NCBI GenBank assembly: GCA_050251945.1
Contig: JBFWLW010000004.1
Location: 64,001-128,000 of the forward strand
Direction: 5' to 3'
Source: Deferribacterales bacterium
Lineage (GTDB): Bacteria > Chrysiogenota > Deferribacteres > Deferribacterales > Geovibrionaceae
Length of the DNA: 64,000 nt
The notes below the pieces were generated by a model, which did no database searches, was not told the DNA's origin, and was given only the letters and a program-made list of their open reading frames with translations. Of the stretch, positions 11,145-36,344 are shown piece after piece. The translations under genes and the position numbers were made by a program. The first letter of the stretch is position 1. The number at the start of each line of letters is the position of its first letter.

Positions 11145-12018
11145 CGTCTATGCCCTCTTTTTCATTCGCCGCCTCGATGTCGTCAAGATGCAATTGGTAT
11201 GCTTCGTAAAGCGTTGCCTTCGCCTCGTCCGGTGCAATATGGGTTCCCGCTATGACTATCTCTGCCTTATGGCGCACCCTTGCGGCTATCAGGTCGATTT
11301 CTTCGGTTGCCTGCTCTTCAAAGCTCTTGCCAGATACTTTGAGTTTGCCTGCGAAGTTTTCCTCAAGCACAGCCTTTAAAAAGTCCCTCACTGCGTCTTT
11401 GTGCAGACTGCCTTTGCCGTGTCCCATAGAAACGGATATATCAATTTTCAGCCCCGAAAGAGTTTCCAGCATCTTGAAGTTTTCGCCGATCTCGCTGTTG
11501 AGAATGTTACCGACAAAATCAGCCGCCGGTGCTTCGATAGAGAGGTTGACCTTGCGGAATATCTCCCAATTCAAGACCTGCGTGTATGCGTCATAGCGAT
11601 AAAGCGGGTGTGTGCCTGCCGATGCGTCCCCGGAAAGCCAGCGCACAAAGTCCGAAAAGTTCGACGCTCTGCCGCCGAGCGTCAGGATGCACCCGTTTTC
11701 TGTGTCGATAAGCCCATAGCTGACATCACCGAGGGAATCGGGCGATTCGACAGCCTCTTGAATTTCGCCTTCTCGGTTGAAGCGGACGGGAAGAAATATC
11801 TTTTCCTTAACGATGCCTACAAGATGGAGCGTTCTGTCTGAAAGTTTGATAGGTTCGTAAACTTTAAACATGAGTTCACAGCCTTTTCCATCAAAAAAGC
11901 CATAGTCCATGCCGCCTGACGACAGCATTTCCAGTTTGAAATCCATATCCTGATAAAAGGTGTCCACTGCGGATTCCAGTTTGTAAAAGTTGATTGTTAC
12001 GTTTTTGCGTTCTGCCAT
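11125..12018 (-). CDS. Possible DUF6731/RexA-RdgC-like protein
   Basis: 297 aa; length and N-terminal VTINFY and C-terminal EIDLI pattern resemble this group. Confidence 0.4.
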   Translation of the reverse strand: MAERKNVTINFYKLESAVDTFYQDMDFKLEMLSSGGMDYGFFDGKGCELMFKVYEPIKLSDRTLHLVGIVKEKIFLPVRFNREGEIQEAVESPDSLGDVSYGLIDTENGCILTLGGRASNFSDFVRWLSGDASAGTHPLYRYDAYTQVLNWEIFRKVNLSIEAPAADFVGNILNSEIGENFKMLETLSGLKIDISVSMGHGKGSLHKDAVRDFLKAVLEENFAGKLKVSGKSFEEQATEEIDLIAARVRHKAEIVIAGTHIAPDEAKATLYEAYQLHLDDIEAANEKEGIDDEDCSN

Positions 12019-16897: not shown

Positions 16898-17058
16898 AGG
16901 GGCGGTTCAGGTTTCCGCCCCAAAACTTCTTAAAAACAAGTGGCTTTATCTTACTTTTCTGATTAATTTTATTACTACCCGTCGCCGGGGCATGGTCGGG
17001 TGATGAAGCCGCCATAGTTGCCGTGGTCTGCTAAACCGTTAAGCCGTCACCTCCTGCT

Positions 17059-25354: not shown

Positions 25355-25383
25355 TTGACAACCCGTGCATTGTACGGTATATT
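25355..25383 (+). promoter_or_regulatory. Strong sigma70 promoter with palindromic operator in the spacer
   Basis: TTGACA-17-TATATT; CCGTGCA-T-TGTACGG at 25363-25377. Confidence 0.8.
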
Positions 25384-25777: not shown

Positions 25778-26050
25778 ATGGCAACTTACAGAGAATACGC
25801 AAAAGAAAACGGACACACAGATGCAGAGATTGAAGAAATGGTAGAAGGTCTTTTCGGCGCAGATGCAGAAATGGTTCTCGCAAGAACCGAAGACGGGAAG
25901 GGTGTTTACAGCGAAGATGAAGGATATCAGAGAACCGAAGATGGAGCGCAAGTTTACAATATGGGCAACGGCTATACTCTATATGTATCAGGAAGCTCTT
26001 ATGACATCGTGGGGCATGATAACGGTGAAACATGGGAACTTGAATACTAA
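25778..26050 (+). CDS. Small highly acidic protein, candidate anti-CRISPR/DNA mimic
   Basis: AAAAAGGAG RBS; about 21 D/E vs 5 K/R in 90 aa. Confidence 0.7.
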   Translation: MATYREYAKENGHTDAEIEEMVEGLFGADAEMVLARTEDGKGVYSEDEGYQRTEDGAQVYNMGNGYTLYVSGSSYDIVGHDNGETWELEY

Positions 26051-26080
26051 AAAAGGCGGCTGTTTAAGCCACCTTTTTTT
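26049..26080. terminator. Bidirectional terminator
   Basis: A6-GGCGGCTG-TTT-AAGCCACC-T7. Confidence 0.7.
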
Positions 26081-26096
26081 GAACTAAGTTCATTTC

Positions 26097-26133
26097 GTTT
26101 CAACTCACAGGGGCGACCGCAATCGCCCCTGAC
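26097..26133 (-). ncRNA. Solitary type I-C-like CRISPR repeat unit (candidate Racr/crRNA-like RNA)
   Basis: RC GTCAGGGGCGATTGCGGTCGCCCCTGTGAGTTGAAAC: GT + 9-bp stem + 11-nt TGAGTTGAAAC tail. Confidence 0.6.
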
Positions 26134-26163
26134 TTTCACAAAGGATAGCACACGGAAAATAAA

Positions 26164-26421
26164 ATGCAAATAAAACTATCAGCGCCAGAACTCAGAAAAA
26201 TTTTTGGACTTACTAACAGGGAGATTTCCGCGGCACTTGGCAAGCCTTTGAGTACCATTGAGCAGCACATGGCGGCGCGGGAATCAGCACGCCACCGGAA
26301 TATGCCTGATTCAGATAAGATGCTGCTCATTTTACGCTACAAAATTATAGAGATGGGATATAATCCCGATAAACTGATAGATGATTTTTTAAGTGAACAC
26401 AATAAAAGCGACGGGGCATAA
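26164..26421 (+). CDS. HTH regulator, Aca-like
   Basis: LRKIFGLTNREISAALGKPLSTIEQHMAA..HRNMP; last gene of the cassette. Confidence 0.65.
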   Translation: MQIKLSAPELRKIFGLTNREISAALGKPLSTIEQHMAARESARHRNMPDSDKMLLILRYKIIEMGYNPDKLIDDFLSEHNKSDGA

Positions 26422-26530
26422 CCCCGCTTTTTTTGTGCCAGAATCTCTATTATTTTAATAAACTCTCGTTTTATCGCTCACATCGTTCTCACCGTCCACA
26501 GAAATTTTTAAGATATGCAATATTAAGGGC

Positions 26531-35751: not shown

Positions 35752-36255
35752 ATGAGATTTATTCGTAATGCTTTTATTGTTTTAGCTATTTTGTTTATAA
35801 TTCTACAATTAAATACATGGCAAAAACGAGAGTTTATGAAGAAATGGCGTTATTATGAAACTAAAGATGCTATAAGTGAAAAACCTATATATATTGCAAG
35901 TGTTTTTTCTTCAGATTATAAAAGCGAACTTATTATTAGATGTGATAAAGATAAAAAAACTTTTGATGTGTTTATTGATTATGGTCGATATTTAACAGGT
36001 TTAGATAAAATTGAAATAAGATATAGATTTGATCAGGACGATGTTATTAACATGCAATGGTATTTATCTGATAAAAGTAAATCAATATTCTCTCCTGAGC
36101 CATATGTTTTTGCTAAAAAATTAATAAAACATAATAGCTTCATAGTTGAAAATGAAAGTCGTGGTTTTGAAAGAGAAAAAATAATAGCTCAATTTAAATT
36201 AAAAGATGGACATGACAAGATTCAGGAAGTTTACGATAAATGCATAAGAGAATAA
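35752..36255 (+). CDS. Moron: membrane-anchored periplasmic protein
   Basis: N-terminal TM; very AT-rich. Confidence 0.65.
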   Translation: MRFIRNAFIVLAILFIILQLNTWQKREFMKKWRYYETKDAISEKPIYIASVFSSDYKSELIIRCDKDKKTFDVFIDYGRYLTGLDKIEIRYRFDQDDVINMQWYLSDKSKSIFSPEPYVFAKKLIKHNSFIVENESRGFEREKIIAQFKLKDGHDKIQEVYDKCIRE

Positions 36256-36315: not shown

Positions 36316-36344
36316 TTGACACTCCCAACGATATTTGTTATCCT
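36316..36344 (+). promoter_or_regulatory. Promoter of the c4-like/ant operon
   Basis: TTGACA-17-TATCCT with extended TG. Confidence 0.75.

Follow-up and report, generated by a model that had tools for sequence, protein, structure and literature searches.

RNA anti-CRISPRs (Racrs) are solitary repeat units (SRUs) of phages and plasmids that act as decoys, drawing Cas proteins into aberrant subcomplexes (PMC10651486). That survey (Camara-Wilpert et al., Nature 2023) reports a catalogue of 2,103 viral units and a tested example, RacrIC1, the neighbour of acrIC5 in a prophage of Bifidobacterium (PMC10651486). The subject here is a 37-nucleotide (nt) repeat-like unit on the minus strand of a 64,000-nt stretch of a Deferribacterales genome (GCA_050251945.1, contig JBFWLW010000004.1, positions 64,001 to 128,000; the window). 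It is solitary and occupies an intergenic stretch of a prophage, between the gene for a 90-amino-acid (aa) protein and that for a helix-turn-helix (HTH) protein, which is the setting expected of a Racr. It is a well-supported new candidate of this published class, not a new principle, and the probability that it acts as a Racr-type decoy RNA against type I-C systems is put at about 0.55.

RacrIC1 and other type I-C SRUs share with the unit a single repeat look-alike that is intergenic in a prophage and adjoined by small genes of anti-defence type, the type I-C tail ...GTTGAAAC and a promoter motif within 250 bp (PMC10651486). The arrangement is different. RacrIC1 is reported to follow acrIC5 after 11 nt, in the same orientation, and to be made as part of a bicistronic RNA (PMC10651486), whereas the unit is antisense, has its own extended -10 element and uses a shared two-way terminator. 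The I-C rows found in the SRU table are 90.9 to 100% identical to known repeats (PMC10651486), a level below which the unit would fall; with the nearest real repeat it has only 15 contiguous end positions in common, and it has a longer stem with swapped arms. Some 90% of SRU hosts are reported to have CRISPR-Cas (PMC10651486), unlike the host of the unit. A possibly incomplete copy of the SRU table (supplementary table file 3) contains no entry with CAGGGGCGA, 3300002596, Deferribacter, Geovibrio or UBA6793. This candidate is unusual in its replaced stem, in being a separate antisense gene whose two-way terminator also serves the payload operon, and in having hosts without type I-C.

A second class of small viral RNA is related. 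The viral Cracrs and the host CreA and CreR RNAs, described in a preprint, resemble the unit in combining a degenerate repeat with a short spacer-like stretch, on phages in the case of Cracrs, and the class includes type I-C (bioRxiv 10.1101/2024.10.29.618823). A Cracr is defined there by at least nine matches, proximal to the protospacer-adjacent motif, to a host CreA or CreR spacer and thereby to the cas or toxin promoter (bioRxiv 10.1101/2024.10.29.618823). Such a spacer-type match is required of a Cracr, whereas the linkers that follow the unit have none in the sequences searched.

The nearest array repeat was found by searching for TTGAAAC at array spacing over 68 genomes of the phylum. 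In a genome of the same genus (G012), an array at the start of a contig (G012:C7, L031) has eight full repeats of 32 nt, GTCGCACCCCTCGCGGGTGCGTGAGTTGAAAC, separated by spacers of 33 to 36 nt. The unit and this repeat have an identical GTC start, closing C-G pair and last 12 nt (GTGAGTTGAAAC), so that the predicted 11-nt handle of the CRISPR RNA (crRNA), TGAGTTGAAAC, is identical too, but their stems are unlike. The earlier note took the unit to be like a type I-C repeat, and a similar repeat does exist in a related array. It had also laid out the minus-strand elements from the sequence, and on re-reading all its coordinates are correct (Table 1). The tail is exactly 11 nt, ends in TTGAAAC and is the same as that of the real array, and the stem is indeed longer than in typical 32-nt repeats (9 to 10 pairs in 37 nt for the unit, 7 pairs in 32 nt for the array repeat).

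As in type I-C repeats, a C-G-closed hairpin stands immediately 5' of the tail, with GU ahead of it; both the unit and the G012 repeat have the hairpin directly before the 11-nt tail, although the unit lies outside any array. According to a review, Cas5d reads the foot of the stem-loop together with the 3' overhang and leaves an 11-nt tag (PMC5965381), and these parts are exactly those that the unit retains. The tail GTGAGTTGAAAC is frequent in metagenome arrays with varied stems. The SRU table assigns repeats with this tail at their end to I-C, and one of its I-C repeats has a stem that starts with CAG and ends with CTG (PMC10651486), like that of the unit. A metagenome scan with the last 20 nt of the G012 repeat gave nine loci, none apparently from this lineage. 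One metagenome locus (L057) carries a repeat identical to that of G012, in a small array without adjoining cas genes.

A covariance model (R1) was built from 15 type I-C repeats and run with filters off; the unit was the top match in the window (19.9 bits, E ~9e-4, the next match having E 0.34), the score of the tail being partly circular as the repeats had been gathered via the same tail. Rfam at gathering scores reported two tRNAs and nothing else in the whole window, and a permissive search of 25950-26250 gave 12 matches far below gathering (the best, HrrF, at 26 versus 77 bits). The real G012 array likewise has no Rfam match, so Rfam cannot judge this element. Taken as a whole, the unit is very probably a derivative of a type I-C repeat.

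The combination of hairpin and tail is more than chance. The 37-mer folds into 2 nt, 10 pairs (nine Watson-Crick and one U.G) and an 11-nt single-stranded tail at -19.0 kcal/mol, and none of 200 shuffles folds as well; the G012 repeat gives 7 pairs and a 5-nt loop at -12.8 kcal/mol. Since perfect stems of at least 7 pairs have 2,702 end positions per strand in the host genome, the chance expectation for such a hairpin with exactly this 11-nt tail behind it is 0.0013 per genome, and two were observed. The seven other matches to GTGARTTGAAAC among 16 genomes of the family are all without a preceding hairpin.

The host genome carries two exact copies of the unit, the second in another prophage on contig 12 (L002), beside gpW-like and lambda-type portal genes. 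The sister species (G011) has one copy (L003) with a single change, GAATTG for GAGTTG, and so has an IMG/VR contig (L034), whose positions L034:2700-3400 agree with the G011 locus. The description of a solitary prophage unit thus stands, with single copies in two prophages and none in arrays. Searching the 68 genomes of the phylum with the 37-mer (up to three mismatches) revealed no array of this repeat, and neither did an exact scan for the last 20 nt over one genome for each of 185,579 species or the same scan of IMG/VR. A blastn search of GenBank phages and PLSDB plasmids with the unit, taken as 96 nt, returned three short matches at chance level (E 0.2 to 0.9). Exact copies of the terminator occur only at the same three loci among the 68 genomes and on the same IMG/VR contig; four matches with three mismatches elsewhere proved to be ordinary gene terminators.

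Conservation at these loci is concentrated in two islands. Compared with L002 and L003, respectively, the window is identical at 40/40 and 39/40 positions of AAA plus the 37-mer, and at 31/31 and 31/31 positions of the terminator with its flanks, loop included. The HTH gene is identical at 141/226 and 143/226 positions (62-63%), and the linker at 6/18 and 6/12 (33-50%, without the conserved AAAAA). Unit and terminator are therefore 97-100% identical between loci, the tail being conserved as strongly as the stem, and the linker from tail to hairpin is 23, 23 and 17 nt long, that of L003 being 6 nt shorter. Judged from the alignment, this pattern, in which two modules are constrained and the linker is free, is that of a putative small RNA gene on the minus strand, and it argues against a single DNA site of fixed spacing. 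The terminator hairpin is more stable in minus-strand RNA (-15.0 kcal/mol, with a G.U pair) than in plus-strand RNA (-12.7 kcal/mol, with a C.A mismatch), which also supports an RNA gene read from the minus strand.

A promoter of its own had been proposed for the unit. The extended -10 is present, and its key positions TG.TAT..T (TGnTATnnT) are invariant upstream of the unit in all three loci, at a fixed 8 nt from GTC (alignment A1); the ribosome-binding stretch of the HTH gene beside it is variable among the same loci. The spacing from TTGCAT to TGCTATCCT is 16 nt on the minus strand, and the -35 region in the two other loci is TTTCCA, 17 nt before the -10. A consensus promoter scan, however, makes no call at the minus-strand site. 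The second TGnTATCCT that the earlier note had pointed out does exist, at 36336-36344. It follows a perfect TTGACA by 17 nt in intergenic DNA, as part of a near-consensus promoter (36317-36344, TTGACA-17-TATCCT with TG before the -10) past an open reading frame that ends at 36255, so TATCCT is a plausible -10 in this phage. The motif TGNTATCCT occurs three times in the window against 1.83 expected, which alone is not significant.

If the unit is a Racr-type decoy, it would be derived from, or imitate, a type I-C repeat, and temperate phages of the genus would carry it as a stand-alone RNA gene. Minus-strand transcription from the extended -10 would start 1 to 2 nt before GUC and stop at the shared terminator, the predicted RNA from promoter to terminator being ~85 nt. 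In a type I-C cell Cas5d would recognise the parts that are identical to the genus repeat, namely the foot of the hairpin and the 3' overhang of 11 nt, and would bind the RNA and probably cut it after the stem. The products would be without a usable spacer: a short hairpin on one side, and the 11-nt handle with 17 to 23 nt and the terminator hairpin on the other. Dead-end complexes formed on these products would sequester Cas5d and probably a few Cas7 subunits, so that less working Cascade is formed, an outcome shown for Racr RNAs. The whole would travel as a mobile cassette of operator-bearing promoter, variable small genes, RNA gene and HTH gene.

Several observations weigh against this interpretation. 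Neither Cas1 nor Cas5d is encoded in the host genome, which is 99.97% complete, and a k-mer scan of it revealed no array. A Racr is expected to match the repeat of its host's system, and here the match is to an array of the same genus. Cas5d was found in none of the seven genomes of the genus, and a type I-C Cas7 query, which had no positive control, was likewise negative in all seven. Within the family, I-C cas genes (cas3-cas5d-cas8c-cas7-cas4) were seen only in G007, which belongs to another genus. In the unit-bearing sister species the systems are type I-F and another one, with a 618-aa Cas1 frame, and not I-C. The G012 array starts at base 1 of its contig and is without cas genes; as it begins there, these may be simply unassembled. 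Nor does the unit itself fit in all respects. Its stem has 9 to 10 pairs rather than 7, with swapped arms (G-rich 5' and C-rich 3', the array repeat being G-rich 3'), and does not align to the stems of I-C repeats. Its length is 37 nt rather than ~32, and it occurs in single copies instead of alternating with spacers in an array. The R1 alignment covers GUC and the tail alone and skips the stem, because stem length and arms differ. The -35 of the minus-strand promoter is weak (TTGCAT, 3/6) and the site is not called by the scan. A search for sequencing runs listed two DNA sources, from one study, and no RNA source. The comparative signal is thin, as it comes from three loci in two species and one duplicate viral contig, and two of the loci are closely related.

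The earlier note's proposal of a crRNA mimic is thus borne out as to kinship with the type I-C repeat and the solitary place in a prophage, but not as to the hosts: the type I-C cas genes it had suggested looking for are in neither the host nor the sister-species host.

Table 1. Features at and around the repeat unit (window coordinates).
Feature	Position	Strand	Remarks
-35-like hexamer TTGCAT	26164..26169	minus	3/6 match to TTGACA; shares bases with the opposite-strand ATG of the HTH gene
Extended -10 TGCTATCCT (TGcTATCCT)	26142..26150	minus	ends 8 nt ahead of the first base of the repeat unit
Solitary repeat unit GTCAGGGGCGATTGCGGTCGCCCCTGTGAGTTGAAAC, 37 nt	26097..26133	minus	GU, stem-loop and 11-nt tail
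Stem-loop of the repeat unit	26108..26131	minus	
Predicted Cas5d cut	between 26108 and 26107	minus	
11-nt tail UGAGUUGAAAC of the repeat unit	26097..26107	minus	
Variable linker ("pseudo-spacer") GAAATGAACTTAGTTCAAAAAAA, 23 nt	26074..26096	minus	includes the A-tract at its end
Two-way intrinsic terminator, hairpin GGTGGCTTAAACAGCCGCC	26055..26073	minus	GGUGGCU-UAAAC-AGCCGCC; 7 pairs, 5-nt loop, then U6
Two-way intrinsic terminator, TTTTTT	26049..26054	minus	U-tract overlaps the stop codon of the plus-strand gene at 25778..26050
Upstream genes		+	VRR-NUC nuclease; HTH_17 protein
Cassette promoter TTGACA-17-TATATT	25355..25383	+	11/12 matches; imperfect palindrome in spacer
Imperfect palindrome CCGTGCAtTGTACGG	25363..25377		probable operator
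Payload gene 1, 87 aa	25427..25690	+	no known family
Payload gene 2, 90 aa	25778..26050	+	acidic; no known family
HTH gene, 85 aa	26164..26421	+	aca-like position; terminators on both sides
Terminator after the HTH gene	26412..26426	+	
Downstream genes		+	small and large terminase (terS/terL)

It is possible, though doubtful, that the unit has no present role in CRISPR at all and is a regulatory RNA of the cassette, adjusting the proportion of payload to HTH protein as an antisense RNA or as a structured spacer between their genes, the likeness to a repeat being a relic or chance. This would suit the known hosts, which are without type I-C, and the lack of a visible sigma-70-type plus-strand promoter before the HTH gene, as a minus-strand RNA would be fully complementary to the probable read-through RNA. 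The loop of the terminator is invariant too, which a plain decoy does not require. Such a role does not account, however, for the exact agreement of the GU, the closing pair and the unpaired 11-nt tail with the I-C repeat of the genus, or for a conservation of the tail that equals that of the stem, and chance sits badly with an expectation of 0.0013 per genome.

A more elaborate form of the decoy is unlikely. In this form the unit would be a redesigned Cas5d trap rather than a copied repeat: the parts read by Cas5d (GU, closing pair and 11-nt overhang) would be kept, and the stem replaced by a longer, more stable one with swapped arms. The invariant terminator hairpin, which has the size of a real repeat stem-loop, could imitate the 3' handle of a crRNA. 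As the RNA gene faces the payload operon, which is operator-controlled, RNA and proteins would alternate. Early in infection the strong promoter would make the proteins and collision would suppress the antisense promoter; in the lysogen the HTH protein would shut the payload promoter, and the RNA would serve as a cheap and lasting brake on type I-C. If so, homology-based SRU searches would miss such units and the class could exceed its catalogue.

Improbable, again, is a viral crRNA-like guide of the Cracr kind, in which the handle and the linker of 17 to 23 nt would load I-C Cascade for non-cleaving shut-off of a cas or toxin promoter, the terminator hairpin replacing the 3' handle. The parts are there: a handle, a short "spacer" and a 3' hairpin sized like a real repeat stem-loop (7 pairs, 5-nt loop). 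Viral Cracrs against I-C loci are reported in the preprint (bioRxiv 10.1101/2024.10.29.618823), and the linker differs among loci, as expected for different targets. The short guide that the earlier note offered as an alternative nevertheless found no target in the own genome, the G007 cas locus or the family genomes. With TTC plus a 12-nt seed (every sixth position free), none of the three linkers had a match in the host genome of the window. With TTC plus 10 nt (up to one mismatch), neither the G007 cas locus nor two metagenome contigs that have the same repeat tail gave a match. The window linker, at up to two mismatches over the 16 family genomes, matched the element itself and two other sites, against two for the reversed control. 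The linkers showed no similarity beyond shuffle level to a lone repeat unit of G012. Moreover, one linker is 6 nt shorter, and much of each consists of the A-tract needed by the terminator.

Least probable of all is a site acting as DNA, whether as a boundary for recombination between phage modules, in packaging or late control, or as a palindrome bound by a protein. In its favour, the unit lies just ahead of packaging or head genes (terS/terL in the window, gpW-like and portal genes in the others), and two perfectly identical islands lie between diverged flanks. Against it, the spacing between the islands varies (18, 18 and 12 columns), the operator of the cassette is a different palindrome elsewhere that changes with the HTH protein, the G.U versus C.A difference in the terminator and the fixed extended -10 point to minus-strand RNA, and identity with a crRNA handle would have no explanation at the level of DNA.

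The unit thus remains best read as a candidate decoy RNA, and the cassette in which it lies is consistent with an anti-CRISPR (acr) locus. All genes of the neighbourhood are on the plus strand, opposite to the unit. The three loci have the same order of palindrome promoter, variable small genes, terminator, opposite-strand unit and HTH gene. The payload consists of the 87-aa and 90-aa proteins in the window, a 79-aa protein in L002 and, in the sister-species locus L003, a 73-aa homologue of the 90-aa protein, from which 16 to 17 middle residues of the latter are absent. L002 and L003 share the promoter frame with the window. The promoter palindrome is ACCGAATAaTATTCGGT in these two loci, which have alike HTH proteins, and CCGTGCAtTGTACGG in the window, which has a different one. 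The joint change of palindrome and HTH protein suggests repression of each cassette by its own HTH protein and fits an autoregulator of the anti-CRISPR-associated (aca) type. The cassette leader ACTTTATCAAGAGCGGAACA is found exactly only at the three unit-bearing loci among the 16 family genomes. No sigma-70-type plus-strand promoter was seen between the first terminator and the start codon of the HTH gene, which is therefore probably transcribed by read-through of that terminator.

As in acr-aca operons, an inverted repeat lies within the spacer of the cassette's strong promoter, and payload genes, small and variable, are followed by a small HTH gene. Unlike such operons, the cassette has a terminator and an antisense RNA gene that separate payload from HTH gene, and its payload belongs to no known family. 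Neither payload protein has a match in Pfam or PHROGs. For the 90-aa protein a PDB sequence search gave no match and an Atlas search no usable match, and its AlphaFold model is of low confidence (mean pLDDT 61.4). The HTH protein matches Sigma70_r4_2 weakly (E 2.7e-5, below cut-off) and the PHROGs transcriptional repressor phrog_7950 (E 6.2e-5), and a homologous-protein search with it returned only the query itself. In IMG/VR the window protein has relatives at one weak locus and the sister protein at three, one of them the L034 contig. Of the dual RNA and protein acr locus that had been proposed, the acr-aca-like architecture around a solitary unit therefore stands, but the payload has no homology to any Acr; it is the architecture of the cassette that makes the neighbouring proteins putative Acrs.

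Type I-F appears to be the usual CRISPR-Cas type in the genus. Cas1 was found in seven of the 16 family genomes, and the arrays beside the Cas1 matches other than those of the sister species hold repeat words of I-F type. In the sister species, a complete type I-F locus (L082, G011:C3:208000-227999) lies between two arrays with the repeat GTTCACTGCCGCAyAGGCAGCTTAGAAA; its frames of 334, 1038, 511, 298, 341 and 186 aa correspond in size and order to cas1, cas2-3, csy1-3 and cas6f, and it is ~21 kb from the unit-bearing prophage cassette. A type I-F spacer of this genome matches window positions 16955-16982 (27/28 nt), and a spacer of its second array (repeat GTTACAGGTCTGTCCGCGAGTGCGCGGGTTGAGAC) matches 11849-11877 (28/29 nt). 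CRISPR systems of the genus, other than type I-C ones, thus do target mobile DNA in the window. Among the G012 spacers, the best match to the host genome was that of spacer 6, at G000:C12:7589-7621 (26/33, E 0.19), which is too weak to count; it lies in frame in an antirepressor-like gene on the contig of the second prophage and is preceded by TCA, not TTC.

The lone unit of G012 mentioned above (L031 708-835) is an extra copy of the repeat without its first bases, ~190 nt past the decayed last repeat of the array. It is followed by ~76 nt of unique sequence and a terminator whose stem, GCACCC...GGGTGC, is the repeat's own, and is possibly a crRNA-like regulatory RNA of the host. The only repeats returned by the k-mer scan of the unit's host were tandem repeats of ~100 bp, which are not of CRISPR type, and one coding repeat. 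The tandem units, at G000:C5:41060-41750, C10:743-1150 and C10:67141-67800, share GATCGCTTCGGGC...CCTCGCGAAGAC...TCTCTGCGAGGAA and, because they are without unique spacers, are not CRISPR arrays.

If the unit is indeed a decoy, RNA anti-CRISPRs would extend to phages of a poorly studied lineage, and everything in a type I-C repeat except what Cas5d reads could be exchanged by a phage. The unit would then define the minimal recognition set of Cas5d in nature, and searches that demand ~90% identity to known repeats would undercount such RNAs. Its antisense placement between payload and HTH genes would offer a simple system for the timing of RNA and protein counter-defence.

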